Shown one piece after another: positions 21,446 through 47,080 of a stretch of 51,515 nucleotides of DNA. The translations under genes were made by a program, and so were the position numbers. Numbering within the stretch: the stretch's first letter is position 1; each line of letters begins with the position of its first letter. Under the pieces are notes generated by a model. The model made no database searches. It was not told where the DNA came from and saw only the letters and a list, made by a program, of their open reading frames with translations. This stretch comes from Acidimicrobiales bacterium (GTDB lineage: Bacteria > Actinomycetota > Acidimicrobiia > Acidimicrobiales > Bog-793): NCBI GenBank assembly GCA_050742375.1, contig JBOGHY010000036.1, positions 1 to 51,515 on the forward strand. Reading direction: 5' to 3'.

Positions 21446-21524
21446 GGGAGCAGTCGAAGTTTCCTACTGAGAAACTCGGCTACCCTGCCACGCTCGCCCA
21501 CCGGCTCGGAAGGGGAAAGGCAAG

Positions 21525-22919: not shown

Positions 22920-22959
22920 GGCGTCCCCGACGGCGGCGCCGGGACAGGAGGAGGGCCAC

Positions 22960-24671: not shown

Positions 24672-24676
24672 GAGGA

Positions 24677-26543: not shown

Positions 26544-26583
26544 GAAATACCTATTGGGCACCGACAAAAAAGGAACGTGCACC

Positions 26584-27933: not shown

Positions 27934-27979
27934 GCGCTCCCCCACCCCCCAGGTACCCGCCCCGGCAGAGGAGTAAGAG

Positions 27980-29398: not shown

Positions 29399-29416
29399 CG
29401 CAGTCCTCTGACTGCG
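29399..29416 (+). terminator. Weak stem-loop CGCAGTC-CTCT-GACTGCG followed by TAGCTTTCT
   Basis: A 7-bp stem lies 11 nt after the stop at 29388. It may be a boundary or attenuator between the NMG module and ubiX. Confidence 0.2.
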
Positions 29417-29429
29417 TAGCTTTCTGGCC

Positions 29430-30023
29430 GTGGCGACGAGCGAGCCCCCGCCGCGGCGCCTCGTCGTCGGGGTGACCGGAGCGAGCGGGACGATCCTCGC
29501 CCGCTCTGTGCTGTCGCTCCTCGGCGCCGCCGGGGTGGAGCGCCACCTCGTCGTGAGCGCCGCCGCCAAGCGCACCGCCGGTGTCGAGTGGCCCGAAGGG
29601 CACCTCGAGTCGATGGCAGAGGTGGTGTATCCCTGGCGGGACATCGGCGCCCCGATCGCCTCCGGGTCGTTCGCCACCGACGGCATGATCGTCGTGCCGT
29701 GCAGCGTCCGGACGATGTCGAGTGTCGCCTTCGGCATCACCGACTCGCTCATCGCCCGGGCCGCCGACGTGACGCTGAAGGAGCGCCGTCGCCTCGTCCT
29801 CAGCCTGCGTGAGTCGCCGCTTCACCTCGGGCACCTGCGTGCGATGCTGGCGGTCACCGAGGCCGGCGCCATCGTGGCGCCGCCGCTGCCGCTCTTTTAC
29901 GAAAGCCCCGCCTCGATCGACGAGCTCGTCGACCAGATGGCCGGGCGCCTCGTAGGCCTGCTCGGCGTCGAGAGCAAGGCCGTGCGGCCCTGGAGCGGCG
30001 TCCGGGCGCGGCCGTCGCCGTGA
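29430..30023 (+). CDS. ubiX: UbiX-family flavin prenyltransferase
   Basis: RLVVGVTGASG...DGMIVVPCSVRTMSSVAFGITDSLIARAADVTLKERRRLVL. Confidence 0.9.
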   Translation: MATSEPPPRRLVVGVTGASGTILARSVLSLLGAAGVERHLVVSAAAKRTAGVEWPEGHLESMAEVVYPWRDIGAPIASGSFATDGMIVVPCSVRTMSSVAFGITDSLIARAADVTLKERRRLVLSLRESPLHLGHLRAMLAVTEAGAIVAPPLPLFYESPASIDELVDQMAGRLVGLLGVESKAVRPWSGVRARPSP

Positions 30024-31438: not shown

Positions 31439-31530
31439 GACGGCGCCGGACGGGGCCGATGCCGGCTTCTGTACTGTCCCCACATGCGCCAAAGAGCTGT
31501 CTCGCGTGGAACCTCTGAGGGGACCGAACG

Positions 31531-32907: not shown

Positions 32908-34540
32908 CCCTGCTGTGCCCAGGGCGGCACGCGGCGCCACGCTGCGGTGCAGGGGCTGGCGGCAGGAGGGCCTGCTCCGCATGCTCGAGAACGTTGTCGA
33001 GATCGGCGAGCGTCCAGAGGACCTCGTCGTCTACGGCGCCCGCGGCAAGGCCGCTCGGGACTGGCCGTCGTTCCACTCGCTCGTCCAGTCGCTCTGCCAC
33101 CTCGGCGAGGACGAGACGCTCGTAGTCCAGTCGGGTAAGCCCATCGGCGTCTTCCCGAGCCCGCCCGAGGCGCCGCTCGTGCTCATGGCATGCGGCAACA
33201 TCGTCGGGCACTACGCGACCCCCGAGCACTTCGACGAGCTCTCGGACAAGGGTCTAATCATGTGGGGCGGGCTCACCGCCGGGGACTGGCAGTACATCGG
33301 CTTCCAGGGCGTCCTGCAAGGGGTCTACGAGCTTTTGCAAGCCGTCGCGAGAGAGCACTTCGACGGCTTGCTCCGCGGGCGCCTCGTCGTCAGCGCCGGG
33401 CTCGGCGGCATGGGGGCGGCCCAACCTCTCGCCATCACGATGTCGGGCGCGCGGGGCATCGTCGTCGAGGTGGACGAGGCCAAGTGCGAACGGGCGCTGC
33501 GGCGGGGACACGTCGACGCCGTCCTCGAGAACCTCGACGCCGCCCTCAACTTCCCGGCCGGAGACTCCCAAAGGGGGGTCGTCGCCCTCCATGCCAACGC
33601 CGCCGGCGTCTACCGGGAGCTGGCGGAGCGCCACGTCGTTCCCGACGTCGTCACCGACCTCACGGCCGCCCACGACGCCGTCTTCGGTTACTGCCCCCTC
33701 GCCCTGTCGGTCTCGAGCTGGCACGAGCGCCGCGAGAGCGAGCCGGCCAAGGTCGCGGCGCTCGCACGGGAGTCGATGGCGGTCCAAGTGGAGGCGATGC
33801 TGGCCCTCAAAGCAGGGGGTGCGGTCGTCTTCGAGAACGGCAACAACCTGCGCGTCCAGGCACACGCCGCCGGCGTCGAGACGGCCTTCGAGATCGACGG
33901 CTTCGCCGACCGCTACATAAGGCCGCTCTTCTGCCGCGGCATCGGCCCGTTCAGATGGGTCGCCCTAAGCGGCGAGGCGAGCGATCTCCTTCAGCTCGAC
34001 GCCCTTGTTAGAAGTACCGCCGCCCGTAGCGAGGTACGCAGATGGATCGACCTCGCCGGCCGTTACGTCGAGGTTCAGGGCCTGCCGGCGAGAAGCTGCT
34101 GGCTCGGCCACGGCGAGCGCTCCGCCTTTGCCGCCGCCGTCAACGAGCTCGTCGCCGACGACAGCCTCGCCGGGCCGGTGCTCTTCACCCGCGACCACTT
34201 CGACGCCGGCGGCATGACCCATCCCCACATCGGCACCGAGGCGATGGCAGACGGCAGCGGCGCCATCTCGGACTGGCCCATCCTCGACGCCCTACTCCTA
34301 TCGGCTTCGGGGGCCGACCTCGTGGCCGTCCACGCCGGAGGCGCCGGCTACGCCGGCTACATGCAGAGCGCCGGCGTGACCGTCGTCGCCGATGGATCCG
34401 AAAGCGCCTCGAAGCGCCTCAGACGCTGCCTTGACGCCGACACAGGGCTCGGTGTCCTGCGCTACGCCGACGCCGGCTACGACGACGCCAGAGCTCTGGC
34501 CGCGAGCTCCCGGCTCGGCCTCGGGGGACAGGACAGATGA
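32900..34540 (+). CDS. Urocanate hydratase family protein, candidate thiourocanate/urocanate hydratase
   Basis: ATG 32900 follows aaaggagg and overlaps the upstream stop by 8 nt. Urocanase motifs RCRGWRQEGLLRML, VVQSGKPIGVF, GLGGMGAAQPLA. Confidence 0.9.
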   Translation: MSDPAVPRAARGATLRCRGWRQEGLLRMLENVVEIGERPEDLVVYGARGKAARDWPSFHSLVQSLCHLGEDETLVVQSGKPIGVFPSPPEAPLVLMACGNIVGHYATPEHFDELSDKGLIMWGGLTAGDWQYIGFQGVLQGVYELLQAVAREHFDGLLRGRLVVSAGLGGMGAAQPLAITMSGARGIVVEVDEAKCERALRRGHVDAVLENLDAALNFPAGDSQRGVVALHANAAGVYRELAERHVVPDVVTDLTAAHDAVFGYCPLALSVSSWHERRESEPAKVAALARESMAVQVEAMLALKAGGAVVFENGNNLRVQAHAAGVETAFEIDGFADRYIRPLFCRGIGPFRWVALSGEASDLLQLDALVRSTAARSEVRRWIDLAGRYVEVQGLPARSCWLGHGERSAFAAAVNELVADDSLAGPVLFTRDHFDAGGMTHPHIGTEAMADGSGAISDWPILDALLLSASGADLVAVHAGGAGYAGYMQSAGVTVVADGSESASKRLRRCLDADTGLGVLRYADAGYDDARALAASSRLGLGGQDR

Positions 34541-35622
34541 GGGAGCTCAGCCACGAGGACGCCCTCGACGCCGTCTTTGGAGGCTCGATCCTCGCCTGCG
34601 GCGGCGGAGGCTGGGTCGAGCACGGGATGATGATGGGTGAGCTGGCGACCCGAATCGGCCACCCGAGCCTTTGCTCGGTCGACGAGCTCGATCCCGGCGC
34701 CCTCGTCGTCACCGTGACCGCGATCGGGGCGCCAGCCTCGCCCAACTGGGAGATCCGCCCGCTCGACTACGTCCGCGCCCTGCAGCTCGTCGCCGCCGAG
34801 CTCGACCGGCCGGTGGCGGCGGTCATGACGGCGCAGAACGGCTCCTCCACCACCCTGAACGGCTGGATCCAGTCGGCTGTCCTCGGCGTGAAGGTGCTCG
34901 ACGCCGCCGGCGACGTACGGGCGCACCCGACGGGCAAGCTCGGCGGGCTCGGCCTCACCGACCGTGAGGGTTACGAGACGGTGCAGGCCGTGGCGGGAGG
35001 CAACCGGGCGCTGTGCGGGGGCGTCGAGATCGTGGCACGGGGACAGGTCGTCACGACGTCGGACGTGCTGAGAGACGTGTGCGTGCGCGCCGGCGGCTTC
35101 ATCGCCGCCGCACGCAATCCGATCGACCTCGCCTACGTCAAGGAGAACGCCGCCATAGGCGCCGTAAGCTACGCCCTCTCACTCGGCTCGGCGCTGCGGC
35201 AGGCGACGTCAGATGCCGAGTCGGTCATGGCGGCTGCGAGCGCGGTGACGGGCGGCAGGGTCGTGGCGAGCGGCGCCGCCGCCGTGGTGGAGCCGCTGCG
35301 GACAGAAGGCGGCTTCGACCACGGAGCGCTTGGCGTGGGCGACTGCGTCCTGCACTACCTGAACGAGTACATGACGGTCGATCGCGGCGCCGAGAGGATC
35401 GCCACCTATCCCGACGTCATCGCCACCCTGTCGCTCGAGACCGGCCGGCCCGTATCGATCGCGCAGATGAGCGAGGGCAGGGAGGTGGCGATCTTCATCG
35501 TCGACCGTTCGATGCTGCCTCTCTCTTCGAGCACGAGGGACCGCTTCGCCCTCGAAGAGGTGGAGAAGATCATGGGCGTGAATCTCCTCGGGGACGAGCG
35601 CGGCGGGAGGGGTGGTTCGTGA
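34537..35622 (+). CDS. DUF917 / S-methyl-thiohydantoin-desulfurase-like protein
   Basis: ATGA overlap with the upstream gene. It has the DUF917 pattern ILACGGGGW...VTAIGAPAS...AQNGSSTT...VLDAAGDVRAHPT. The family assignment is from memory of the motif pattern. Confidence 0.75.
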   Translation: MRELSHEDALDAVFGGSILACGGGGWVEHGMMMGELATRIGHPSLCSVDELDPGALVVTVTAIGAPASPNWEIRPLDYVRALQLVAAELDRPVAAVMTAQNGSSTTLNGWIQSAVLGVKVLDAAGDVRAHPTGKLGGLGLTDREGYETVQAVAGGNRALCGGVEIVARGQVVTTSDVLRDVCVRAGGFIAAARNPIDLAYVKENAAIGAVSYALSLGSALRQATSDAESVMAAASAVTGGRVVASGAAAVVEPLRTEGGFDHGALGVGDCVLHYLNEYMTVDRGAERIATYPDVIATLSLETGRPVSIAQMSEGREVAIFIVDRSMLPLSSSTRDRFALEEVEKIMGVNLLGDERGGRGGS

Positions 35623-36872
35623 GCGCGGGGCTTTCGTCGCCCGACCTCGGGCGGATCGAGGAGGACCTGAAGGCACTGGCGACGTTCCGCGAGGCAAGCG
35701 CCCCCGGATGGACGCGCCCGGTTTTCTCGGCCGTCGACCGGGATGCCCGCCTGTGGGTAGCCGAGCAGATGCGAGCCGCCGGCATGGAGGTGAGCTCCGA
35801 TGCGGCGGCCAACCTCGTCGGCAGGCTGCGCGGCAGCGGAGCGCCCGGTGCAGTAGTGACGGGGTCGCACACCGATACCGTGCCCGGCGGCGGCCGTTTC
35901 GACGGCGTCATCGGAGTCCTCGGCGCCATCGAGGCCGTCCGTTGCCTGCGCGCAACCGGGATGCAGCTCGAGCACGACCTCGTCGTCATCGACTTCCTCG
36001 GCGAAGAGCCGAACGACTTCGGCCTCAGCTGCGTCGGAAGCAGGGCGATCGCCGGCACCCTCTCAAGAGAGCACCTCGCCCTTCTCGGGCCGAAAGAGCA
36101 CAGCCTCGCCCACGAGCTCGAGACGACGGGCGGCGATCCCGACGCCATAGCCGGCGTGGCGTGGCCGCTCGGATCGGTCCACTGCTTCGTCGAGCTCCAC
36201 ATCGAGCAGGGTCCCCGTCTCGAGCTGGCCGGCGTGCCGATCGGCGTCGTGACGGGGATCGCCGGCATCCACCGGCTCGTCGCGAGCTTCTCGGGGCGAC
36301 CCGACCATGCGGGGACGACGCCGATGGAGGCGCGCCGCGACGCCCTTCTCGGCGCCGCCGAGGCGTCGCTTTTGATCGAGAAGCTCGCCGAGGGCTCGGT
36401 CGCCACGGCGGGCCGCCTCGACGTGCACCCAGGCGCCAATAACGTCGTGCCCGCCGAAGCAGAGCTCTGGGCGGAGGCCCGGAGCGCCGACGAGTCATGG
36501 CTGGAGGAATTCGGCCGTCAGCTCGAAGCCGGCATGTCCGGCATCGGCGAGCGCCGCCGGCTCGGCGCGTCGCTTCGATGGCCGTCGCGCGAAGCCCCAG
36601 TGCTCGTGACCGACTGGGTCGCGGACGCCCTCGTAGACACGGCGGGGCACTTTGGCGTCGAGGCCCTCCGTATCCCCAGCGGTGCCGGGCACGATGCCGC
36701 CCAGATGGCGAACCTGGGCCCGATGGGCATGATCTTCGTACCTTCCAGGGACGGCCGCAGCCACTGCCCCGAGGAGTGGACCGACCTCGAGCAGATCGGT
36801 CAGGGGGTGGCGGTTCTCGCCGAAGCACTGCGGCAGCTCGACGCAACACCTCCGGGCGGGAGGGCGGGGTGA
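35619..36872 (+). CDS. M20-family Zn hydrolase (N-carbamoyl-L-amino-acid / allantoate amidohydrolase type)
   Basis: GTGA overlap with the upstream gene. Contains GSHTDTVPGGGRFDGVIGVLGAIEA and a C-terminal PSGAGHDA. Confidence 0.85.
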   Translation: MSAGLSSPDLGRIEEDLKALATFREASAPGWTRPVFSAVDRDARLWVAEQMRAAGMEVSSDAAANLVGRLRGSGAPGAVVTGSHTDTVPGGGRFDGVIGVLGAIEAVRCLRATGMQLEHDLVVIDFLGEEPNDFGLSCVGSRAIAGTLSREHLALLGPKEHSLAHELETTGGDPDAIAGVAWPLGSVHCFVELHIEQGPRLELAGVPIGVVTGIAGIHRLVASFSGRPDHAGTTPMEARRDALLGAAEASLLIEKLAEGSVATAGRLDVHPGANNVVPAEAELWAEARSADESWLEEFGRQLEAGMSGIGERRRLGASLRWPSREAPVLVTDWVADALVDTAGHFGVEALRIPSGAGHDAAQMANLGPMGMIFVPSRDGRSHCPEEWTDLEQIGQGVAVLAEALRQLDATPPGGRAG

Positions 36873-36896
36873 GCAAAGCGGGGGTGACGGGGCTGA

Positions 36897-38858
36897 ATGG
36901 CCGCACCTAAGCGCACCATCGACGACATCCTGAGCGAAGCACGGGCCGGGTTGCGCCGGCTCTCTCCGCAGGAGACCGCCGCCGCCGTGCAACGCGGCGC
37001 CCTGCTCGTCGACATCCGTCCGGCCGCGCAGCGAGGCCTCGAGGGGGAGATCCCCGGGGCGCTCGTCATCGAGCGCAACCAGCTCGAGTGGCGCTTGGAC
37101 CCCCAGAGCGACTCCCGCATACCCGCCGCGATAGATCACGACATCGAGGTCGTCGTCTTCTGCTCCGAGGGATACACCTCGAGTCTTGCCGCATCGAGCC
37201 TGCAGGAGCTCGGACTTCACCGCGCCACGGACATCGACGGTGGCTTCCACGCCTGGAGGAGAGCCGGCCTGCCCGTCACCGCGGGTGAGCTCGAGTGGCC
37301 GGAGCCCGCCGGCCGCCCGGACGGAGCGGGCCGCCGCGACGACCCCGTCCTGACGCTCGACCCCGGGAGAGCGCTCGACATCGAGGGCGTCCGGCAAGTG
37401 GTGGACGGGAGGCCTGTGGACCTCTCGTCTGCGGCACGTGAGCGCGTGCGGGCGGCAAGGGAGATCATCGATGAGACCGTTGCCTCGGGCGCCGCCGTTT
37501 ACGGCTTGACCGCCGGGCTGGGACATGCCCGCGACCAACGCCTCTCGGCCGCAAGCCTCGCCGAGTACCAGGTCGGCATCATCCTGAGCCATGCGGGCGG
37601 GGTCGGGCCACCCCTGCCCACGGCCGCCGTCCGTGCCGCCATGCTGGCACGCCTCAACAGTGCGACCCGTGGTGGCGGCGCCCTGACGGAGCGGTCGGTC
37701 GAGATGCTCGTCCGGTTCCTCAACGCGGGCGTCCACCCCGTCGTTCCTGAGATCGGCTCGGTCGGAGCATCCGACCTCATGCACCTCGCCGCGGTCGCCC
37801 TGGTGGCGATCGGCCTTGGAGAGGCCGAGTACAGGGGAAACGTCCTCACCGGTGGGGACGCGCTCGCCGCCGCCGGCCTCGGGGCCCTTCAACTTGAGGC
37901 CGGAGAAGGACTTGCCCTCGTCTCGGCCAATTCCTTCTCGATCGGTATGGGCTGCCTCGTCGCGGCAAGGGCCCGGCAGCTCGTGGAGGAGGCGGACGTG
38001 GTGGCCGCGTTGTCGCTCGAGGCAGTGGAGGGGAATCTTTCGGTGATCGAACCGGCTGTCGGTGTCGCCAAGCCTGTGCCTGGCCAGATCGCAACCATCC
38101 GCCACCTCCGCTCGCTCCTGGCGGGCAGCCCGCTCTTCGAGCCGGGGAGGGCCTCGTCGCTGCAGGATGCCTTGTCGTTTCGGGTCATCCCGCAGGTTCA
38201 CGGGGCCGCCCGTGAGCTCGTCGACGCCCTGAAAAGTGCCGTCGAGCTTGAGCTCAACGCGATGGACGACAACCCCCTCGTGTGGATTCCCGAGCGACGA
38301 CTGATCTCCAACGGGAACTTCCATCCGATGGCGATGGCCCTTTACTTCGACGCTCTCCGCCCCGCGCTCGCCCATCTCGGCTTGTGCTCCATTCGCCGCA
38401 TGAACCACCTCGGCAACGCCGTCTTCGGTGAGCCGGAAGGATTCGAGGAGATGATGACCGTCAACGCCGAGCAGTACGGGCGTGTGGCTTCGCTCTATGC
38501 CGGGGCGGCGCTCTGGGCAGAGCTCCGGCAGCTTGCCGGCCCGGCGACACTCGACATCGAGTCACTCGACTTCGAGCAGGAAGACCACGCCACGGCTTCT
38601 TTCTTGACGGTCGCTACCACAGAGCGCACCCTCGGGCTGCTCGAGCGAATCCTCGCCATCGAGCTCGGCTACGCCTCTTTCGTGTTCGACCGTCGTTCCG
38701 GCGAAGAGGGCCTCGGGGCAGGCACCGGCGCTGCTCTCGAGCGCGTTCGCTCGGCTGTCGCGGGCGCCGGCTCCGCAGCCCGGTGTAACGACGCCCTCAC
38801 CGAGCTTCTCCGAACCGGCGAGCTTCTCCGGACGGTGGGGCCTGCCAGCACACGGTGA
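36897..38858 (+). CDS. Rhodanese domain fused to an aromatic-amino-acid-lyase-family domain lacking the MIO triad, candidate ergothionase-like betaine lyase
   Basis: Residues 1-130 form a rhodanese domain with active-site loop VVFCSEGYTSS (Cys codon at 37161-37163). Residues ~150-653 are HAL/PAL-like (AVYGLTAGLGH). The MIO position reads GSVGAS-DLMHLA (37755-37778). Confidence 0.85.
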   Translation: MAAPKRTIDDILSEARAGLRRLSPQETAAAVQRGALLVDIRPAAQRGLEGEIPGALVIERNQLEWRLDPQSDSRIPAAIDHDIEVVVFCSEGYTSSLAASSLQELGLHRATDIDGGFHAWRRAGLPVTAGELEWPEPAGRPDGAGRRDDPVLTLDPGRALDIEGVRQVVDGRPVDLSSAARERVRAAREIIDETVASGAAVYGLTAGLGHARDQRLSAASLAEYQVGIILSHAGGVGPPLPTAAVRAAMLARLNSATRGGGALTERSVEMLVRFLNAGVHPVVPEIGSVGASDLMHLAAVALVAIGLGEAEYRGNVLTGGDALAAAGLGALQLEAGEGLALVSANSFSIGMGCLVAARARQLVEEADVVAALSLEAVEGNLSVIEPAVGVAKPVPGQIATIRHLRSLLAGSPLFEPGRASSLQDALSFRVIPQVHGAARELVDALKSAVELELNAMDDNPLVWIPERRLISNGNFHPMAMALYFDALRPALAHLGLCSIRRMNHLGNAVFGEPEGFEEMMTVNAEQYGRVASLYAGAALWAELRQLAGPATLDIESLDFEQEDHATASFLTVATTERTLGLLERILAIELGYASFVFDRRSGEEGLGAGTGAALERVRSAVAGAGSAARCNDALTELLRTGELLRTVGPASTR

Positions 38859-38934
38859 GCCCGGGGTGCTCGTCGGTGGTCATGTCCTAAGGACCGCCCC
38901 CCAAAGGCCCATGGCGATCGCCCTACCGGCGTCG

Positions 38935-40410
38935 TCAGCGCGCGAAGAGCGAGCCCCCGCGACCTAGTGTCATCTCGCCGAACGCCCCTGCGAGCGCACC
39001 TACCGAGTCGCCAAGATCTTGATCAGACGTGCGGCCAGGTGGAGGCACTAGCTCGCGAACGACTGACACGAGGGGCTGCAATCGAGGCGGAGCTTGCCTC
39101 TCCGTCACGAACAGCGCCTGGCTGGAGGTGGCGGCCAGCGAGGCGAGGCAGGCGTCGAGGCACCAAGCCGCCCGGCCCTCCTTTGAGTAGGCGAAGAAGG
39201 TCGGTGAGGCGACATCGTTCTGGCCGGTGAAGCCGCCGCTCTCGCTTGCAGGAAGAAACGTGCGCGCCGCCTCGTGTCGAGCCTGCTCGCTGAAGCCGAT
39301 CTGCATCATCGCGAGGCCGGCCGTCGCTCCCCGGTCGTCTTCTGAGGTGCTCAGGTGGTGTGGGAGGAGGGAGACGCTGCCGTCGTGGAGCTTCATGGTG
39401 TGGCGCTCGGCAAGGCCGCACAGGTCGGCCCAAGATGCCGAGACTCCGTCTATCGCAGGGTAGGCGCTTGCGTTGTGATAGCCACCGGTCGAGAAGGCGC
39501 GTCCGTTCGGATGCTCACTGTCGGCGGGGACGTAGACGGGGTTGTCGGTGACTGATGAGATCGCGATCTCGGCGACCTCCTCGAGGGTCGCGACCGCACG
39601 GTGCGCCTGTCCGAGCACCCGCGGCAGGATCCGGTAGCTCACCGGTGCCTGGAAGGGCCGCCGACCCTCCCGGGGGGCTTCTTCAAGCCATGACGCCAGG
39701 GCGTCCAGGGCCATGCCCTCGTACCGATCACGCCAGAGGTCCTTGAGCACCGGGTCGTAGGGCTCGAGCGGTGCCCTGAACGCCTCGATGGACAGAGCAA
39801 AGACCTGCTCGGCCAGGTCGAGGCGACGACCCGCTCTGAGGGCGGTGTCGGCGGCAAGGGCCGCAGAGCACGGGGATCCGTTGACGAGCGCCATTGGCTC
39901 CCCCTCCTCGAGCTCGAGGTCGTGATGGCGAAAGGTGCTCATCACATGCGCAAGCGGGATGATCTCTCCCGCCCCTACCTCGCCTGCTACCGGCACCTTC
40001 GCCAGCGGACGCTCGAGCATCTCGGCGATCCGCTCTGCCACCACCGGACGCGACTTGGCATTTCCCTCCACGTAGTTCGCGAGCCTGGCGAAGATGATCC
40101 CCCGCACCACGGTGTCGGGGAGGCGCTCCTCCCCAAAGCTTGTCCCCCGGCGACTCCTGCGGGACCAGGCGACCGCGTAGCCGCGCTGTTCCTCTGGGGC
40201 GATCGGGCGCTTCGCTCCCTCCCCGGCGCCTGTGGTCGTCCCGTAAATGAAAGCGGTCCTGTCGCTGTCGAGAAACGCCATGAACGACCGGCGAGACTCA
40301 TCCATCGCTCGGATGGCGCCGGGTCCGATCTCCACGCTCTCGCCGTCGATCGAGACGCGCCTGTAGTTCTCCAGGGTGAAGTCTTGCCGGGACTGGACGA
40401 CGACGGTCAT
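38935..40410 (-). CDS. Aromatic-amino-acid-lyase-family protein lacking the MIO triad (paralogue 2)
   Basis: ATG follows AAGGAGG. Contains FIYGTTTGAGE. The MIO position reads GEVGA-GEIIPLAH (39946-39984). Confidence 0.8.
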   Translation of the reverse strand: MTVVVQSRQDFTLENYRRVSIDGESVEIGPGAIRAMDESRRSFMAFLDSDRTAFIYGTTTGAGEGAKRPIAPEEQRGYAVAWSRRSRRGTSFGEERLPDTVVRGIIFARLANYVEGNAKSRPVVAERIAEMLERPLAKVPVAGEVGAGEIIPLAHVMSTFRHHDLELEEGEPMALVNGSPCSAALAADTALRAGRRLDLAEQVFALSIEAFRAPLEPYDPVLKDLWRDRYEGMALDALASWLEEAPREGRRPFQAPVSYRILPRVLGQAHRAVATLEEVAEIAISSVTDNPVYVPADSEHPNGRAFSTGGYHNASAYPAIDGVSASWADLCGLAERHTMKLHDGSVSLLPHHLSTSEDDRGATAGLAMMQIGFSEQARHEAARTFLPASESGGFTGQNDVASPTFFAYSKEGRAAWCLDACLASLAATSSQALFVTERQAPPRLQPLVSVVRELVPPPGRTSDQDLGDSVGALAGAFGEMTLGRGGSLFAR

Positions 40411-40490
40411 TAATGCCTCCTTGCCTACGAGCTAGCCTATGTTGGCAGGTCGGCTCGCACCTCGCCCTGGGTCTACTACCGTTTCGTGGG

Positions 40491-40640
40491 TCAACGAGCC
40501 CAAGGTAGTGACGGTGCGATACCAGCTCTATCCAGCACGATCATCGTGATGAAGCTCTCGGGGTCATCGAACCCGCGGGCGGCCGAGACGAGCCGGGCGA
40601 TGGCGGCGTTGTTGGACTCGGAGAGCGCGTTCGTCGGGGA
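40491..40640 (-). pseudogene. Degraded C-terminal remnant of an ISL3-like transposase
   Basis: The translation SPTNALSESNNAAIARLVSAARGFDDPESFITMIVLDRAGI follows the ISL3 C-terminal pattern (SN..LEG.N.KI.LI.R.A.GF.....FIAMI.L). No upstream transposase body is present. The family assignment is tentative. Confidence 0.4.
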
Positions 40641-40677
40641 TGGATCCCGCTGCGCCCGGGCTAGGTTCTGACCGCGA

Positions 40678-42321
40678 ATGCGCGAGCGCTCGGTCGAGCT
40701 CACCGGGGAGGACCTCACCGTCGACGACGTGGTCGCCGTCGCACGGGACCGTTCGAAGGTGACCATCTCACCCGAGGCGATCCGCCGGGTCCGCCTCGCG
40801 AGGCAAGTGGTCGAGACCGTCTATTCGAGCGGCGAGGCGGTCTACGGACTGAACACGGGTCTCGGCTCGTTCGCCCGCTACAGGATGACCCCGGACCAGG
40901 TCCGGGAGTTCTCCTTCGCGACGATGGCCGACCAGCTCGCCTCCTACGGCCGCCCCCTCTCGATCGAGGTGGTACGGGCGATGATGGTGGCGAGGGCGAA
41001 CGGCATGGCCAAGGCGGGGGTAGGAGTCCGCTTGGAGCTCCTCCAGCTCTTGGTCGAGCTCTTGAACCGCCAGGTTCATCCGGTAGTCCGCGAGGTCGGC
41101 TCCGTCGGCCAGGGCGACCTCTCGGAGATGTCGGACATCGGAAAGGTGATGATCGGTATCGGCCGGGCCGAGGTGGGCGGCCAGATCCTGGATGGGAGAG
41201 AGGCTCTCGCCCGGGTCGGCCTCGAACCCATCGACCTCGCACCGAAAGAGGCGCTCGCTCTCATAAGCGCCAACGGGGTCACGCTCGGCTGGGGCTCGCT
41301 CGTCCTCTACGACGTGGCCGACCTGCTCGACTGGCTCCAGGTCGCGGCGGCACTCTCACTCGAGGGCTTCGCCGGGAACCTTTCGATAATCCACCCGGGC
41401 GCCGCCCGCTTCCAGCCTCACATCGGCGCCAACGCCGCGGCCGACCGCCTCCGCAGCCTCCTCGAGGGCTCCTACCTCTGGGAGCCCGGCTCGGCTCGCA
41501 ACCTCCAGGATCCGCTCTCGTTCCGCTGTGTGCCGCGCACCCATGGCGCCCTTTACGACACGCTCGCCTACGCCAGGGCGACACTCGAGGCGGAGCTCAA
41601 TTCCGCCAGCGACAACCCTCTCGTCCTCGTCGACGAGAACGTCATCATCTCCGTCGGTTACTTCGACATCGCCACGGTCGCGATGGCCTTCGACCTCGTG
41701 CGCATAGCCATCGCGAATGCCCTCAAGGTCGCGAACGAACGCGTGCAGAAGCTTCTCTGGAACCACTTCAGCGGCCTCCCGAGCGAGCTGTCGCTCAAGA
41801 AGGGAACTGCGAACGGGCTGAAGCCGATGGGGCGCTGGTGCGCCGCCATCACGGCCGAGGCCCGGTCGCTTGCGAACCCGGTCACGCTCGACTACGTGGG
41901 CCAAGTGGCCGAGGGCGTGGAGGATCACGCGAGCATGGCGCCGCTCGCGGTGAAGCGTGCCTACGAGCTCGTCTCCGTCGCGCACAGGGCCGTCGCTTAC
42001 GAGCTCGTCATCGCCTCTCAGGCAGTGGACCTAAGAGGTCGTCGCCCACTCGGACGGGGCACCATGCTCGCCTTCGAGACGGTGCGCGAGCACGTCCCGA
42101 AGCTGGAGGAAGTGACGACCTGGGATGCCGATGTCGAGGCCGTGGTCGAGACGGTCGCGAGCGGCTATCTCGGAGCACAGGTCGCCACGGTCGTTGGCGG
42201 TCGCCGTGACCTCTCTGATCACGAGGGCCCCGGCTCTCTGTCGAAAGCCGCCATCGAGGAACTGGAACAGGCGAGCTCCGAGGAGCCCTACGGCACCATC
42301 GACACAGGCGGAGGCAGGTGA
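40678..42321 (+). CDS. Aromatic-amino-acid-lyase-family protein lacking the MIO triad (paralogue 3)
   Basis: HAL-like N-terminus LTGEDLTVDDVVAVA... and AVYGLNTGLGSF. The MIO position reads GSVGQ-GDLSEMS (41098-41121). Confidence 0.85.
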   Translation: MRERSVELTGEDLTVDDVVAVARDRSKVTISPEAIRRVRLARQVVETVYSSGEAVYGLNTGLGSFARYRMTPDQVREFSFATMADQLASYGRPLSIEVVRAMMVARANGMAKAGVGVRLELLQLLVELLNRQVHPVVREVGSVGQGDLSEMSDIGKVMIGIGRAEVGGQILDGREALARVGLEPIDLAPKEALALISANGVTLGWGSLVLYDVADLLDWLQVAAALSLEGFAGNLSIIHPGAARFQPHIGANAAADRLRSLLEGSYLWEPGSARNLQDPLSFRCVPRTHGALYDTLAYARATLEAELNSASDNPLVLVDENVIISVGYFDIATVAMAFDLVRIAIANALKVANERVQKLLWNHFSGLPSELSLKKGTANGLKPMGRWCAAITAEARSLANPVTLDYVGQVAEGVEDHASMAPLAVKRAYELVSVAHRAVAYELVIASQAVDLRGRRPLGRGTMLAFETVREHVPKLEEVTTWDADVEAVVETVASGYLGAQVATVVGGRRDLSDHEGPGSLSKAAIEELEQASSEEPYGTIDTGGGR

Positions 42322-42389
42322 CAGCTGAGGCAGCCGGCCGGCGCGACTACGGTGCCACCGGCGACGACGTCCGGACGGCTGGCTCTCGC

Positions 42390-44114
42390 TCAGGTCTTGT
42401 AGGCGTTCCAGAGGAAGAACTGGCCCTGAGCCGTCGGGTAGGTGCCGTGCACGTTCTTCCGGCTGGCGCTCAGGTAGTTGTAGAAGTACGGGAACATGAC
42501 CGGCGTCTCGTCAAGCAGGAGGTTCTCGATCTCCTTCGCAAGGCTCCGCTGCTTCCCGAGGTCGATGGCCGCGACGAACTCCTTCGACAGCCTGTCGTAG
42601 GTGCGGTCGTTGAAACGGGCGGCGTTCCAGGCCCCCTGGCCGGTCTTCTTGTCGGGTGACTGAAGAGGCGCCTCGAGGTAAAGGTTCGGCACGGAGCGGG
42701 CGCCGTAGTCGACCTCGCTCATCTTCGCGTCGAGCCAGTCCGAGTGGCCGAAGACGCCCGTGCCGTAGTACTTGTCCGGCGCCTCGATCACAAGCGAGAT
42801 GTCGACTCCGATCTGCTTTGCGGACTCGGCGATGATCTGGGCGAGCGCCGGCATCTCTTGGGTCGTCTCGGTGTAGAGCGGCGTCTTGAAACCCCTCGCG
42901 ACACCGCCCTTCGCAAGGTACTCCCTGGCGAGCTTGAGGTTCTTGTGCCGCTGGGGGACCGCCGGCGGTCCGACCCTCGAGGGGAAGACGGGCGCAAAGG
43001 GGCTGTCGTTCCCGATCGATGCCTGGCCCTTGAAGAGCGCCTTCACTATCCCCGGCCGGTCGAGGGTGAGGGCGATCGCCCGGCGGACGTACTTGCTCGT
43101 GAAGGGATGAAGGTCCGTGCGCATCGACACCTCGCGGTGCGTGGCCGCCTTCAGGGAGGTGACGTTGTAGCTGCCCTCTAAGAGCTGAGGGCTCGACGCC
43201 ACAGAGAACTGAAACATGCAGTCGATCGAGCCCGCCTGAAGGGCAGCAGTGCACGGGGTCTCGGTCGCATAGAAGGTGAACTGGATCTCCTTCGGCAGAG
43301 CCTCTGCTCCCCAGTAGTGCGGGTTCCGCACGTAGACCGCACCCGTGCTCGGGTGGAAGCTCTTCATCTTGAAATGTCCCGTCCCGGGGAAGCTCTTTGG
43401 GTAATCCGAGTAGTCGAAGCCCTTCGGGACGACGATCATGTTGTAGTTGTCCTCGGTGACGGCATCGATGAAAGAGGCGTCGGGTTGCTCGAGGTGGAGG
43501 GCGAGGGTCGTCTCATTCACCTTCACGACGCCGTCGGGGACGAGCAGGCCGCCGAAGATGGAGAGGGCATTGCGGCCCGTCTTGGGGTTGCACTGGGTCT
43601 GGAAGCTGTAGACGACGTCGTCAATCGTCATGGGCGTGCCGTCGTTGAACTTCACGCCTTGGCGGATCTTGAAGGTCCACACAGTGGCGTCGTGATTCGG
43701 TTTCCAGCTCGTGGCAAGCCACGGGTGATAATGGAGGTGCTGGTCGACGAAGACGAGGAACTCGCCGACGTTGCCGATGAGCTCGAGGCCACCCTGGTCC
43801 TCGATGATGATCGGGTTGACCGCCGTGGCGGGAACGAGAATGCCGGCGCGGATCGTCGCGCCCTTGTGGCTGGCCGCCGCCGCCGTCGGCCGGGCAGGCG
43901 ACGCCGCGGCGACGCCCACACCGCCGACGGCCTCGACCATCGCCCCGGCCAGCGGGAGGCCGATGCCGAAGGCCGTCGCCTTTCTAAGGAAGCTCCGCCG
44001 GTCGACTCTCCCGGCGGCGAGCTCGTCGACAAAGTGCTGTTCGATCGGGCCCTGGCCGGCTCGGAGCTGGTCAAGCCGCCTGTGGTTGACCTTGCCCGGT
44101 TCCTCGGTGGTCAT
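42390..44114 (-). CDS. ABC transporter substrate-binding protein, family 5, Tat signal
   Basis: ATG 44114 follows GGAAGGAAGG. Twin-arginine leader RRSFLRKATAFGIGLPLAG. The 41 upstream codons in the track ORF are not supported. Confidence 0.85.
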   Translation of the reverse strand: MTTEEPGKVNHRRLDQLRAGQGPIEQHFVDELAAGRVDRRSFLRKATAFGIGLPLAGAMVEAVGGVGVAAASPARPTAAAASHKGATIRAGILVPATAVNPIIIEDQGGLELIGNVGEFLVFVDQHLHYHPWLATSWKPNHDATVWTFKIRQGVKFNDGTPMTIDDVVYSFQTQCNPKTGRNALSIFGGLLVPDGVVKVNETTLALHLEQPDASFIDAVTEDNYNMIVVPKGFDYSDYPKSFPGTGHFKMKSFHPSTGAVYVRNPHYWGAEALPKEIQFTFYATETPCTAALQAGSIDCMFQFSVASSPQLLEGSYNVTSLKAATHREVSMRTDLHPFTSKYVRRAIALTLDRPGIVKALFKGQASIGNDSPFAPVFPSRVGPPAVPQRHKNLKLAREYLAKGGVARGFKTPLYTETTQEMPALAQIIAESAKQIGVDISLVIEAPDKYYGTGVFGHSDWLDAKMSEVDYGARSVPNLYLEAPLQSPDKKTGQGAWNAARFNDRTYDRLSKEFVAAIDLGKQRSLAKEIENLLLDETPVMFPYFYNYLSASRKNVHGTYPTAQGQFFLWNAYKT

Positions 44115-44260
44115 GACGCCCTTCCTTCCTGCTCTCCCGAGAAAGTCCTCGGGTGGCTCTGTCACACGATCGAAACAAACGCGTAGCAGTTCGTACCATA
44201 ACCGCCCCCGCCCCGCCATGCCAGGGGTTGGGTCCACTGTTGCTCGACCGGCAACGGCTC

Positions 44261-45268
44261 TCAGACGATCGCCACGTCGACTGCCCGACCGGTGGCAAGC
44301 GCCCGCTCTGCTGCGACGGCCACCTCGAGCGTCGCCCGGGCATCTTTTGGGGTGCAGCAGACGAGCGCGGGATCGCCCGCCTTTGCGGCACGAAGGAAGG
44401 CGGTCACGGAGGCCTCGAGCGGCAGGGAGGGGCTTTCGATGCTTACGGGGTTGCCCGATGAGGTGCCCGAGAGCCGGAAGTCAGGATCGAGGTCGAGCCT
44501 CAGCGTCGCCTCGGCAGCGACGACGTCGAGGGCGTAGCGGCCGGGCTGGTCCTCGCGCGTCCAGGCCACGGTGACGCTCGCGAGGGCGCCAGATCTGAGC
44601 TCGGCGAGGATCGAGACGGCGTCGTCGATGTCGCCCCCGCCGACGGCGCCGGGGTCGCCGGCGCCCCGGGCAAGGAGGACCCTGCTCGCGGCGGCCTGGA
44701 CCGAGGCGATCTCGCCCCCGACGCTGCGCAAGAGGTCGAGGTGGTGGCTCCCGCGCTCCAACAGGTTGCCGCCGCCGGCGCGTCGGTCCAAGAACCACGG
44801 CCGGCTTGCCGTCGGGCCGATGCTCGTGCCGACCAAAAGGCCGATCGCCTGGCCGGCGAGCAACCCCCGGAGATCCGACAGCAGCGGCAGCGCGTGCCAT
44901 TGGTACCCGACGGCACAGACGCAGCCGGCGGCCTCGGCGGCTTGAACGACGAGGGCCGCATCGTCGAGGTCGCGAGCGATGGGCTTTTCGAGATAGGTCG
45001 GCAACCCCCGGGCGAAGGCCGCCAGGGCGGGCTCTTTGTGGGCGAGAGGCGGGACGCAGACGAACACGGCGTCGAGGTCCTCCTCGTCGAGAAGCTGGCG
45101 CCAGTCCCCGTAGGCCCTTGCCCCGCATCTACTTGCAAAAGCCTCTCCCTTTCCCAAGTCGAGGTCCGCGACCGCGACGATCGCCACGCCCTCCAACCCG
45201 TCGAGCACGCCGCGATGCGCCTCGGCCATCCATCCGGTACCTATGATCCCAACCCGAGTCTCTTCCAC
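44261..45268 (-). CDS. Gfo/Idh/MocA family oxidoreductase
   Basis: GTG start. Rossmann fold RVGIIGTGWMAEAH and EKP motif YLEKPIA. Confidence 0.85.
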   Translation of the reverse strand: MEETRVGIIGTGWMAEAHRGVLDGLEGVAIVAVADLDLGKGEAFASRCGARAYGDWRQLLDEEDLDAVFVCVPPLAHKEPALAAFARGLPTYLEKPIARDLDDAALVVQAAEAAGCVCAVGYQWHALPLLSDLRGLLAGQAIGLLVGTSIGPTASRPWFLDRRAGGGNLLERGSHHLDLLRSVGGEIASVQAAASRVLLARGAGDPGAVGGGDIDDAVSILAELRSGALASVTVAWTREDQPGRYALDVVAAEATLRLDLDPDFRLSGTSSGNPVSIESPSLPLEASVTAFLRAAKAGDPALVCCTPKDARATLEVAVAAERALATGRAVDVAIV

Positions 45269-45279
45269 GGCACGTCAGT

Positions 45280-46263
45280 ATGTCCGCCATGAGAGATCCA
45301 CGCTTGGAGCACTCCGGTCCGATCGGTCCGCTACAGCCGACCGGTCCGGCACGGGACTTCGTCGGCTACGGCCCCCTGCCTCCGGCGGTGAGCTGGCCAG
45401 GTGGCGCCAAGCTCGTCGTGAGCGTCGTGTTGAACTACGAGGCCGGAGCCGAGTACAGCCTTGCCGAGGACGGCCGCAACGACACATGGGGCGAGTACTC
45501 CTACGAGGTGGGACCCGAAGTCCGCGACCTCGGCACCGAGACGCACTTCGAGTTCGGCAGTCGGGCGGGCGTGTGGCGCCTCGCCCGCCTCTTCGACCGG
45601 CTCGGCGTGCCGATCTCGGTCGGAGCTTCGGCGCTATCGCTCGAGCGCAACCCAGCAGTCGCCGAGTGGATCGTCGGCTCGGGCCACGAGGGTCTCGCGC
45701 ACGGCTACCGCTGGGCCGAGTGCTCGCAGATGACACGGGAGGAGGAGCGATCACAGATGCTTCGGGCCGTCGAGGTCTTCGAACGCCTGACGGGCGGACA
45801 TCCGGCCGGCTGGTACGTCAGGTCGTTCCCGAGCATTCACACGCGCGAGCTCGTCGTCGAGGAGGGAGGCTTTCTTTACGACTCAGATGCCTGCAACGAC
45901 GAGCTGCCTTACTTCGTCGACGTCAGGGGCACGCCGTTCCTCGTCGTCCCCTACTCGAAGGTCTACAACGACACCCGCTATCTCTTGGCGCCGACCTACT
46001 CGGTACCGCGGCACTTTTGCGAGAGCCTCAGAGACGGCGTCGAGTACCTCTGCGAGGAGGTCGAGCAGGGCTGCCCGCCGAAGATGATGACGATCGGGGT
46101 CCACGCCCGCTGGAGCGGACAGGCGAACCGGGCGTCGGCGCTCCGCGACTTTTTCGAGTGGGCCCTCGAGACCGAGGGCGTGCTCTTCATGCGTCGCGTA
46201 GACATAGCGCGCTGGTGGCTCGACCATCACCACGAGTGGGCGCGCCGGCCCAACGGGGGATGA
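45280..46263 (+). CDS. Polysaccharide-deacetylase-fold hydrolase, PuuE-allantoinase-like
   Basis: RDFVGYGPLPPAVSWPGGAKLVVSVVLNYEAGAEYS parallels the PuuE N-terminus. Contains HGYRW. The start may be ATG 45280, ATG 45289 or a downstream TTG. Confidence 0.8.
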   Translation: MSAMRDPRLEHSGPIGPLQPTGPARDFVGYGPLPPAVSWPGGAKLVVSVVLNYEAGAEYSLAEDGRNDTWGEYSYEVGPEVRDLGTETHFEFGSRAGVWRLARLFDRLGVPISVGASALSLERNPAVAEWIVGSGHEGLAHGYRWAECSQMTREEERSQMLRAVEVFERLTGGHPAGWYVRSFPSIHTRELVVEEGGFLYDSDACNDELPYFVDVRGTPFLVVPYSKVYNDTRYLLAPTYSVPRHFCESLRDGVEYLCEEVEQGCPPKMMTIGVHARWSGQANRASALRDFFEWALETEGVLFMRRVDIARWWLDHHHEWARRPNGG

Positions 46264-46276
46264 AGCGCGACTTGAT

Positions 46277-47080
46277 CTAGGACCAGGGAGTCGACGGCCG
46301 TTCCTGCAGCTCCCCATCGACGTAGAGGGCGTCGACCTTCTCGTCGTAAAAGCAGATGTGGTTCTCGATCTTCGGGCATTCGGGGATCGGTAACGGGTAG
46401 CACCACGCGGTGTCCTTCACCAGGTGCTCACCGACTCTCACCGAGTAGTAGGTGGCCTCGCCCTTGTAGGGGCAGCGGCTCGTCGATTCGGACGGCTCGA
46501 GGAGGTCGAGGCGGACGTCGAGCTTCGGGATGTAGTAACGGGTCGGCAGGTGCGTCTCGAACAAGAGCCGCGGCCGGCGAGTCTCGGCGACTCTCTCGCC
46601 TGCTATCTCGACGACGACGTGGCGCGAGCTCTGCAGCACGTCGACCCGCTTGTAAGGATCCCTCGGATGGACGTAGACCTCGTCATCCTCTTCGAACCAG
46701 GCATCCATCTTCGACCAGTAAAATGCCACCAGACCCGAAAGCTCGCCCGGCGCGCCGGGAAGCGGATCGACATAGCGCCAGGCGGCGTTCTCTGCAAGGC
46801 GGTCGCCGACCTTCACCGAGTAGTAGCTAGCCTCGCCCTTGTAAGGGCAGCTCGTTCGGTGGTCACTTGGGGCGAGCAGGTCCGCCCGGACGTCTTCGTC
46901 GGGGAAGTAATAGACCGGGAGGTGTCCCGTCTCGAACATCGTCCTCACCTGTGTCGAGTCCGCGACGGGCTTACCGGCGAAGCATGCCCTCACGCGCTTC
47001 GGACAGCTCTCGAAGCGGACGGCGTGCTCGCCTCCACTGTCTCCGCCGGTGGTCCTTCGGTCCTCGAGCATCTGGCTCAT
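46277..47080 (-). CDS. Tandem DUF427 domain protein
   Basis: Two DUF427 repeats, each ending in CPYKGEA(S/T)YYSV. ATG 47080 follows AGGAG and overlaps the ATPase stop (ATGA). Confidence 0.8.
   Translation of the reverse strand: MSQMLEDRRTTGGDSGGEHAVRFESCPKRVRACFAGKPVADSTQVRTMFETGHLPVYYFPDEDVRADLLAPSDHRTSCPYKGEASYYSVKVGDRLAENAAWRYVDPLPGAPGELSGLVAFYWSKMDAWFEEDDEVYVHPRDPYKRVDVLQSSRHVVVEIAGERVAETRRPRLLFETHLPTRYYIPKLDVRLDLLEPSESTSRCPYKGEATYYSVRVGEHLVKDTAWCYPLPIPECPKIENHICFYDEKVDALYVDGELQERPSTPWS

Follow-up and report, generated by a model that had tools for sequence, protein, structure and literature searches.

Three clustered lyase homologues without the MIO triad in an Acidimicrobiales contig are predicted betaine trimethylammonia-lyases of the ergothionase lineage

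The window analysed here (the whole stretch of 51,515 nucleotides of contig JBOGHY010000036.1, assembly GCA_050742375.1) derives from an Acidimicrobiales metagenome-assembled genome (MAG) and contains three clustered genes, W1, W2 and W3, whose products share the fold of histidine ammonia-lyase (HAL) but lack the Ala-Ser-Gly triad that gives rise to the 4-methylidene-imidazol-5-one (MIO) cofactor. We propose, with a probability of roughly 0.7, that the three proteins are MIO-independent trimethylammonia-lyases of the ergothionase lineage, with pockets suited to different betaines, which were joined by rearrangement in a catabolic island. A preliminary description of this DNA had suggested betaine lyases with different substrates, and this suggestion was supported by the structure matches, the active-site residues, the ert and methylamine gene context and the differences between the pockets, all of which would be consistent with such a role. 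The open reading frames (ORFs) were located at the positions given in that description, in the plus, minus, plus arrangement, and all three belonged to the lyase fold according to Pfam (Lyase_aromatic, PF00221):

36897-38858, plus strand: W1, rhodanese-lyase fusion, 653 aa (PF00221, 409 bits)
38935-40410, minus strand: W2, divergent MIO-less lyase, 491 aa (PF00221, 183 bits, match split)
40678-42321, plus strand: W3, MIO-less lyase, predicted ergothionase, 547 aa (PF00221, 451 bits)

The cofactor loops were identified as GSVGASDLMHLA in W1 (37755-37790, plus strand), GEVGAGEIIPLAH in W2 (39946-39984, minus strand) and GSVGQGDLSEMS in W3 (41098-41133, plus strand). These motifs lay where they had been described, although the previously given ends of two of them (37778 and 41121) cover only GSVGASDL and GSVGQGDL. 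The loops were placed with pairwise HMMER alignments to solved structures and with a MAFFT alignment including P. putida HAL, T. acidophilum HAL and T. denticola ergothionase. All three aligned on G141-A142-S143-G144-D145 of HAL and were one residue shorter than the GSVGASGDL sequence of that enzyme. The residues at HAL positions 141-145 were as follows:

HAL: G-A-S-G-D
Ergothionase: G-E-(gap)-G-D
W1: G-A-(gap)-S-D
W2: G-A-(gap)-G-E
W3: G-Q-(gap)-G-D

No X-Ser-Gly tripeptide was present within the loop of W1, W2 or W3, and none of the three carries the Ala-Ser-Gly triad there; formation of MIO is thus not expected, in agreement with the earlier claim. A wrong motif register, or a triad elsewhere in the loop, was looked for with both the HMMER and the MAFFT alignments and was not found. 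The remaining [ASTC]-S-G tripeptides (aa 196 of W1, aa 50 and 494 of W3) all lie outside the loop, and a triad hidden elsewhere in the proteins was rejected as an explanation. The loop forms were maintained across whole families, each in more than 100 homologues (GSVGQGDLSEM for W3, GSVGA[S/A/G]DL for W1 and G[Q/E]VG[A/P]GE for W2), which argues against both chance and sequencing error. As the serine in the W1 loop varies between Ser, Ala and Gly among relatives, it does not represent a cofactor precursor. The preliminary description had also assumed a different one-residue deletion in each gene. This could not be upheld, since the alignment cannot say which residue was lost and the loop length is common with the crystallised ergothionase (Protein Data Bank entry 6s7j; SSIGE-GDI); three separate deletions are no more likely than a single old shortening.

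The scores against the hutH model TIGR01225 (338, 115 and 368 bits for W1, W2 and W3, respectively) were below its cut-off of 539, as was the score of the crystallised ergothionase (360). NCBIfam release 20 contains no model for MIO-less lyases, and ergothionase and W1-W3 match only hutH or other MIO-enzyme models at sub-cut-off scores, which explains the widespread misannotation as histidine ammonia-lyase. The downstream enzymes of both the ergothioneine and the S-methyl-ergothioneine routes are curated in NCBIfam.

The active-site comparison proposed in the preliminary description was performed with the MAFFT alignment (HAL numbering). Tyr53, Gln277 and Arg283 were retained in HAL, ergothionase, W1, W2 and W3. 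The catalytic Tyr and the carboxylate-binding Gln/Arg/Asn, including the Asn of the DNP motif, were retained in all three window proteins and were invariant within each of their families (F1, F2 and F3 for the W1, W2 and W3 clades, respectively). The pockets differed at several positions, among them those of Lys384, His83 and Glu414:

Position 83: His in HAL, ergothionase and W1/F1; Gln in W3/F3; variable in F2 (Arg in W2)
Positions 195-197: N-G-T in HAL; S-C-N in ergothionase; S-A-N in W3 and W1; N-G-S in W2
Position 280: Tyr in HAL; Leu in ergothionase, W3 and W1; Val in W2
Position 330: His in HAL, W1 and W2; Glu in ergothionase; Asp in W3
Position of ergothionase Lys384: Tyr or Val in HAL; Lys in T. 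denticola ergothionase (Td_ETL); Arg in F3; Tyr in F1; Trp or Phe in F2 (Met in W2)
Position 414: Glu in HAL, ergothionase, W3 and W1; Asn or Asp in F2
Position 416: His in HAL, ergothionase, W3 and W1; Val or Ile in F2

Lys384 has been described as the residue by which ergothionase binds the thiolate, and its replacement is reported to abolish activity, while Asn or Gln at this position marks the lyases of sulfur-free histidine betaines (bioRxiv 10.1101/2025.08.13.670108; 10.64898/2026.04.22.720169). Judged by these residues, W3 would carry the ergothionase signature (basic at position 384, acidic at 330), W1 appears to combine the imidazole pocket of HAL with an ergothionase-like amine site, and W2 is predicted to have a hydrophobic pocket.

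That the triad and Tyr280 are both lost, with the base Tyr and the residues clamping the carboxylate still in place, argues for active trimethylamine lyases of the E1cB/E2 type. The trimethylammonium leaving group makes MIO unnecessary in ergothionase (bioRxiv 10.1101/2025.08.13.670108; 10.64898/2026.04.22.720169), as no electrophilic cofactor is needed when trimethylamine departs. By analogy with ergothionase, the conserved Tyr would take the beta-proton, Gln, Arg and Asn would hold the substrate carboxylate, and an alpha,beta-unsaturated acid and trimethylamine would be released. In W3, Arg386 may assume the role of Lys384 and Asp330 that of the acidic residue of ergothionase at that position, and the thiourocanate formed would be passed to the adjacent ErtB-ErtC-ErtD-ErtE enzymes. 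The freed trimethylamine could be consumed by the products of the neighbouring amine-dehydrogenase-like, electron transfer flavoprotein (ETF) and N-methylglutamate-pathway genes, as far as their family-level annotation suggests.

The similarity to the described ergothionases (T. denticola Td_ETL and Burkholderia ErtA) comprises the fold, the short triad-less loop and the catalytic Tyr in all three proteins, and in W1 and W3 also the QD-LSFR motif, where Leu stands for Tyr280 of HAL, and S-x-N in place of N-G-T. Only W3 shares with them the basic residue at the Lys384 position, the acidic residue at HAL position 330 and the linkage to ErtB/C/D/E. W3 differs by Arg, a conservative change, in place of Lys384 and Gln in place of the imidazole-binding His; W1 and W2 differ by Tyr and Met, respectively, at the Lys384 position and so lack this mark of a strict ergothionase, W1 additionally by its N-terminal rhodanese domain and W2 by the absence of the Glu-Asp-His motif. 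Ergothionase had been regarded as the known MIO-free member of the fold. This view is outdated, as the Shewanella histidine betaine trimethylammonia-lyase Swoo_3913 and the N(pi)-methyl-histidine-betaine lyase SO_3299, reported in 2025-26, have been characterised; they are MIO-less, retain the imidazole-binding His and Glu, and carry Asn (Swoo_3913) or Gln (SO_3299) at the Lys384 position, and pocket changes retune the betaine substrate in such lyases (bioRxiv 10.1101/2025.08.13.670108; 10.64898/2026.04.22.720169). The short-loop lyases described here are thus an extension of a recently recognised enzyme family and involve no new principle. HutH of P. putida (1b8f/1gkm) has the same fold (TM score, i.e., template modelling score, of ~0.82-0.85 for the W2 model), and its whole imidazole pocket is present in W1, but the triad and Tyr280 are missing from W1, W2 and W3, and their scores do not reach the hutH cut-off.

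The best solved-structure match of W3 was ergothionase 6s7j (1.3e-72). Its key residues are Tyr56, Gln86 (for His83 of HAL), Gln277, Leu280, Arg283, Asp330, Arg386 (at the Lys384 position) and Glu415, of which Arg386 and Asp330 are invariant in the W3 family. Among the W3-type metagenome loci of at least 7 kb, an ErtB-type hydratase was present beside the lyase in 31 of 33, and 11 of them displayed the co-directional order (ErtD-)ErtB-ErtC-ErtE-W3. In the closest relatives of W3 (71-74% identity), the lyase gene abuts ErtE, often with a divergent Opp operon upstream. The W3-linked hydratases and desulfurases always scored best as the thio form, never as the S-methyl or hut form, and two of the desulfurases (loci L105 and L137) cleared the curated cut-off. 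A systematic ert linkage was observed only in the W3 family. The hydratase linkage and the thio-type downstream enzymes identify W3 as the candidate ergothionase of this operon type, and ergothioneine is very probably its substrate, as predicted from sequence and context. The actinobacterial ergothionase type with Arg386 and Gln86 represents a very common, unrecognised family and appears to be new. Genes of the MttB family (similar to non-pyrrolysine trimethylamine/betaine methyltransferases) recurred near W3-type lyases (L003, 14198-15640; L094, L096, L099 and L138). An Opp/Dpp-type ABC importer with a family-5 binding protein was the recurrent transporter partner of the actinobacterial ert/W3 operons (42390-44237 and 46277-51097 in the window; L091, L097, L100, L112 and others). 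This Opp-type system is a candidate ergothioneine importer unrelated to EgtUV.

W1 is composed of a rhodanese domain (aa 23-122, nucleotides 36963-37262; PF00581, 47 bits), a disordered linker (aa 131-147) and a MIO-less lyase domain (aa 160-618). The rhodanese active-site Cys89 (codon 37161-37163) lies in the sequence CSEGYTS, with the six-residue loop C89-SEGYT, and was retained in 11 of 11 fused homologues (11 clusters). The AlphaFold2 model of W1 reached a mean pLDDT (predicted local distance difference test) of 87.8, with the rhodanese domain modelled confidently. The best solved-structure match was again ergothionase 6s7j (2e-60), and the key residues of the lyase domain are Tyr202, His232, Gln423, Leu426, Arg429, Tyr534 and Glu562. 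W1 agrees with HAL at His83, Phe329, His330, the Lys384 position (Tyr) and Glu414. The combination seen in the Shewanella enzymes, in which the imidazole-binding His and Glu are kept and the Lys384 position is neutral, was found in W1 only (Tyr534, His232, Glu562); this likeness concerns the residues described for those lyases, not sequence relatedness. The Shewanella lyases are located in the periplasm and have flavocytochrome or urocanate reductases of anaerobic respiration as partners, whereas W1 is cytoplasmic, rhodanese-fused and part of an assimilatory island; neither a periplasmic leader nor an adjacent PF00890 reductase was found for W1, the N-terminus of which is the rhodanese domain. 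An unfused relative (54% identity) is encoded between hutI-ftcD and hutU (971 bits), with a true triad-bearing hutH nearby. Its position inside a genuine hut cluster makes hercynine the likeliest W1 substrate and fits urocanate as the product. We tentatively suggest, at somewhat less than even odds and from residues and gene context, that W1 cleaves hercynine (histidine betaine) or an oxidised or sulfur-modified ergothioneine.

The rhodanese domain looks catalytically competent and, speculatively, would handle sulfur species. The thiol dioxygenase and desulfurase neighbours prompt the guess that these are sulfite, sulfide or persulfide from ergothioneine oxidation or desulfuration. The fusion of a rhodanese to a MIO-less lyase appears to be new and, if the assignments hold, would be the first such sulfurtransferase fusion. 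Fused W1 relatives were located near amine-dehydrogenase-like genes of the old yellow enzyme (OYE)/FeS type, BHMT-like genes and N-methylglutamate-pathway genes. In another Actinomycetota genome (L002), UbiX-UbiD lies directly upstream of the rhodanese-lyase, and in L004 the fused homologue follows a CDO-type thiol dioxygenase and a DUF427 gene. Such dioxygenases (PF05995) repeatedly adjoined W1-, W2- and W3-type lyases (L004, 8479-9159; L010, L012, L036 and L094-L098). In L036 the genes after the dioxygenase encode a free-standing rhodanese and another lyase, the loop of which reads GGIGTGDLTAM. These neighbours suggest oxidative processing of ergothioneine in the same clusters. In one protein of the W1 clade (P0222, 788 aa) the lyase is fused to a SAM-methyltransferase domain, and in L170 a small methyltransferase (13325-13933) is encoded two genes from a W1-clade lyase; methylation and elimination may be coupled in some of these organisms.

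W2 is a divergent member of a deep clade in which hydrophobic or neutral residues take the place of the imidazole-binding His/Glu and of Lys384; its key residues are Tyr56, Asn177, Gln254, Val257, Arg260, Met368 (at the Lys384 position) and Asn398-Asp399-Val400 (for Glu-Asp-His). The invariant residues of its family are Tyr56, Asn177, Gln254, Arg260, the DNP motif and Tyr311-His312. The AlphaFold2 model (pLDDT 84, predicted TM score 0.87) matched tyrosine ammonia-lyase (TAL), tyrosine aminomutase (TAM), HAL and ergothionase about equally in Foldseek (TM 0.80-0.85), which indicates an intact fold and does not speak to specificity. The W2 family extends over Actinomycetota, Alpha- and Gammaproteobacteria and Dehalococcoidia/SAR202 (Chloroflexota). 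From Actinomycetota to Alphaproteobacteria, the order of W2-type lyase, DUF427, family-5 solute-binding protein (SBP5) and Opp recurs, and the nearer members of the family, which accompany these genes, are frequently joined by one or two further lyase genes. The genome of Pikeienuella piscinae contains a tandem lyase pair, the second gene of which is 54% identical to W2; the pair is followed by DUF427, SBP5 and Opp and faces S-methyl-pathway genes above their cut-offs (hydratases NF058531, 980 and 975 versus 880; desulfurase NF058532, 552 versus 450; ErtD, 751 versus 600). This S-methyl-ergothioneine cluster thus differs from the window, in which the hydratase and desulfurase are of the thio type only. 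The two Pikeienuella genes overlap by 4 bp, which may reflect translational coupling and perhaps an enzyme made of two different subunits (hetero-oligomeric). W2-type lyases were also often paired with a more divergent cofactor-less lyase with the loop GLTSPGEILPM (L006/L007, 8496-11467; L013 and L015-L020). In Rhizobium and several Gammaproteobacteria, including Steroidobacteraceae, UbiD/UbiX and ErtD/ErtE-like genes, with no urocanase, were found beside W2-type genes (UbiD/UbiX loci L008, L061, L067, L075 and L085). The neighbours of the Mesorhizobium W2 relatives were housekeeping genes in a Pfam scan and thus uninformative. W2 may cleave a related but distinct betaine that would be imported by the Opp-type/DUF427 module, with S-methyl-ergothioneine as the best single candidate; we regard this sequence-based assignment as possible, at about one chance in three. 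Also apparently new is the W2 clade, in which genes occur in pairs and are associated with DUF427, Opp and UbiD.

The pairwise identity between W1, W2 and W3 was 22-36%, which marks them as ancient paralogues rather than local duplicates and rules out a recent tandem duplication. In database searches, W1 as well as W3 had more than 1,600 matches at E<=1e-20, and W2 had more than 2,300 at E<=1e-10. Well over 100 close homologues were found per family. The identity of W1, W2 and W3 to T. denticola ergothionase was only ~30%. In the neighbour-joining tree (100 bootstraps), the W1 clade and the W2 clade with its tandem partners were each supported by 100% and the W3 clade by 59%; the split between triad-bearing HALs and all cofactor-less proteins reached 51%, which makes one common origin of the short loop plausible, though not established. 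When annotated plasmids were searched for close relatives with curated names, W1 and W3 matched only distant HALs, and W2 matched two Rhizobium chromids lacking annotation. In three Actinomycetes MAGs (L022, L025 and L032, two of them Streptosporangiaceae), three cofactor-less lyase genes stand in a row beside a BHMT-like gene, one being W3-like (loop GSVGQADLGPM) and the other two W2-like. Clusters of several such lyase genes thus recur elsewhere and are no peculiarity of the window.

The remaining genes of the island that bear on the proposed pathway were assigned as follows:

29412-30023, plus strand: UbiX flavin prenyltransferase (NCBIfam UbiX, 218 bits, above cut-off)
30020-31438, plus strand: UbiD-family decarboxylase (TIGR00148, 296 bits, above cut-off)
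31531-32907, plus strand: ErtD-like hydantoin-5-propionate amidohydrolase (best NCBIfam match NF058538, 425 bits, cut-off 600)
32846-34540, plus strand: ErtB-like (thio)urocanate hydratase (NCBIfam thiourocanate hydratase 720 bits, S-methyl form 670, hutU 635)
34537-35622, plus strand: ErtC-like thiohydantoin desulfurase, DUF917/S-Me-THD fold (NF058529, 390 bits, cut-off 440; S-methyl form 268)
35619-36872, plus strand: ErtE-like N-carbamoyl-L-glutamate amidohydrolase (NF058540, 504 bits, cut-off 520)
40503-40646, minus strand: ISL3-family transposase C-terminal remnant of ~48 codons, in the W2-W3 intergenic region
42390-44237, minus strand: family-5 solute-binding protein (Pfam SBP_bac_5, 236 bits)
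46277-47269, minus strand: DUF427/NTP_transf_9 protein (Pfam PF04248, 216 bits)
46277-51097, minus strand: the DUF427 gene followed by Opp/Dpp-type ABC ATPase and permease genes

The genes for UbiX, UbiD, the ErtD-, ErtB-, ErtC- and ErtE-like proteins and W1 form a tightly packed co-directional string (29412-38858), of which UbiX and UbiD are the first two; W1 starts 24 nt past the ertE stop codon. All three lyases are linked to the genes for the predicted thiourocanate hydratase, thiohydantoin desulfurase, ErtD and ErtE in the window, and the best NCBIfam matches of the Ert homologues were ergothioneine-pathway models. The ErtB-like protein, which probably starts at the Met near 32900, shared only 49% identity with bona fide actinobacterial HutU. 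The start of the ErtE-like gene is approximate, as it lies inside a longer ORF (35013-36872) and the NF058540 alignment begins at aa 209 of that ORF. The W1, W2 and W3 ORFs were intact, with a coding-type GC content at third codon positions (GC3) of 0.80-0.86. A transposase scar between W2 and W3 had been noticed before and was supported, as the remnant matched the C-terminus of DDE_Tnp_ISL3 (PF01610, E=0.0027) and an annotated ISL3 transposase (tblastn, 43.8% identity, E=5e-5). In contrast to the related loci, in which W3 abuts ErtE, W1 and W2 sit between ErtE and W3, which, together with the remnant at the W2/W3 junction, points to insertion or rearrangement. A promoter and terminator scan of 36700-42500 gave nothing above chance.

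Upstream of the lyases, the region 10777-29107 holds a methylated-amine catabolism gene set, with all assignments at the family level only. It encodes a BHMT-like methyltransferase, ETF alpha/beta with an Fe-S oxidoreductase, an APC permease, a SoxB-like oxidase, GmaS-like and MgsA/MgsC-like N-methylglutamate proteins, a GcvT-like protein resembling the C-terminal half of trimethylamine N-oxide (TMAO) demethylase, and an OYE/Fe-S flavoprotein of the architecture common to trimethylamine and dimethylamine dehydrogenases. The specific label of trimethylamine dehydrogenase was dropped for the latter, as NCBIfam gave no specific match. The island is the setting expected for enzymes that free trimethylamine from ergothioneine-like compounds. 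On the other side, the SBP5, DUF427 and Opp genes are likely an importer module for betaine substrates. The window Opp genes were 70-75% identical (BLAST) to those flanking ert/W3 operons elsewhere, and SBP5 genes recurred beside W1-, W2- and W3-type lyases in other loci. DUF427 (PF04248) proteins of various lengths accompanied W1- and W2-type lyases in taxa ranging from Actinomycetota to Alphaproteobacteria (46277-47269 in the window; L002, 15398-17056 and 19796-20587; L004; L006, 11505-11918). A 9.7-kb contig of the same assembly (CDBEST010000290.1, L001) carries W1(part)-W2-W3-SBP5-GFO-PuuE, matching 37206-46904 of the window; it is offset by 9 nt downstream of W3 and thus represents a near-duplicate contig or strain variant. 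The SBP5 start as called in the sister contig corresponds to a position near 44114.

Other explanations were weighed against trimethylammonia-lyases with different betaine substrates. The public annotation of the relatives, almost always histidine ammonia-lyase or HAL/PAL/TAL family (PAL, phenylalanine ammonia-lyase), would fit ordinary MIO-dependent ammonia-lyases whose missing triad is an alignment artefact, but this is scarcely credible: three independent alignments set the short loop, devoid of X-Ser-Gly, on HAL 141-145, the Ser position of the W1 family accepts Ser, Ala or Gly, Tyr280 is lost and the hutH scores are sub-cut-off like that of ergothionase. It is very improbable that one or more of the proteins, above all W2, are dead pseudoenzymes, e.g., structural partners in hetero-tetramers. 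W2 is very divergent, as seen in its split 183-bit Pfam match, and W2-type genes often stand in tandem with a second lyase (with the 4-bp overlap in Pikeienuella); against this, the columns that do not vary in the W2 family are those for catalysis and carboxylate binding, and all three ORFs are intact with coding-type GC3 and confident models. Redundant ergothionases acting as isozymes on ergothioneine would account for the presence of all three genes in or beside one ert operon, with W1 co-directional and 24 nt behind ertE, and for ergothionase as the best structure match of W1 and W3. We consider this improbable in view of the 22-36% identity, the separate clades with full bootstrap support for F1 and F2, the differences at Lys384, His83, 330 and Glu414 (Lys384 replacement abolishing ergothionase activity according to the literature) and the restriction of systematic ert linkage to the W3 family.

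W2, and perhaps W1, could also act on other aromatic betaines, such as hypaphorine (tryptophan betaine) or tyrosine betaine, with UbiD/UbiX decarboxylating the aryl-acrylate; Fdc1 decarboxylates cinnamate. W2 lacks His83 and Glu414, its clade has Trp/Phe/Met and Val/Ile in the pocket, UbiD/UbiX adjoin the W2-type genes of the five loci named above and the rhodanese-lyase in L002 and the window, and W2 relatives occur in the legume symbionts Mesorhizobium and Rhizobium. This is nevertheless unlikely, as the same UbiD loci hold ErtD-/ErtE-like cyclic-amidase and carbamoylase genes that fit a hydantoin-type ring and not indole or phenol, the Pikeienuella relative of W2 is in an S-methyl-ergothioneine cluster, W1 has the full imidazole pocket of HAL and the Mesorhizobium contexts are uninformative. 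Finally, a bolder proposal, to which we give about one chance in five, is that the rhodanese-lyase fusion couples sulfur (or selenium) transfer to trimethylamine elimination on a histidine betaine not yet recognised as a bacterial nutrient (ergothioneine persulfide, disulfide, sulfinate, or selenoneine) and that, separately, the W2 clade, often as translationally coupled pairs, is a fourth specificity class, possibly hetero-oligomeric, that feeds a UbiD/cyclic-amidase route matching no described pathway.

Several observations weigh against our proposal of three trimethylammonia-lyases with distinct betaine substrates. T. denticola ergothionase was the only characterised MIO-less sequence in the tree, and the split of the triad-bearing HALs from all cofactor-less proteins received a neighbour-joining bootstrap of ~51%. 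The actinobacterial Ert homologues fall mostly under the NCBIfam cut-offs, in the window mostly just under them. In W3 the imidazole-binding His is replaced by Gln, and the Lys described as essential by Arg, and the gene directly after ertE is W1, not W3, so W1 could also yield thiourocanate. The hut link of the W1 clade comes from one locus, the other unfused relatives having uninformative neighbours. The S-methyl link of the W2 clade likewise comes from one genome, where another lyase gene forms a pair with the W2-type one; no S-methyl-type hydratase or desulfurase was found in the window, the enzymes of which score higher as thio forms. In addition, many 48%-identical W2 relatives lie in housekeeping contexts, and UbiD/UbiX beside W1- and W2-type genes fits no described histidine-betaine pathway.

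Actinobacteria and fungi produce large amounts of ergothioneine, the role of which as a dietary source of trimethylamine is debated. In a recent survey ergothionase was judged to be rare (PMC13405746), in part because the searches began from one Burkholderia sequence. Our analysis indicates that soil Actinomycetota carry a large ergothionase-type family in ert operons, misnamed as histidine ammonia-lyase and marked by GSVGQGDLSEM and Arg386, along with at least two further cofactor-less clades that are likely tuned to related betaines. If the assignments are true, substrates in the MIO-less lyase family could be predicted from a residue code, an Opp-type system other than EgtUV would be a candidate importer of ergothioneine, and trimethylamine sources in metagenomes could be annotated better.

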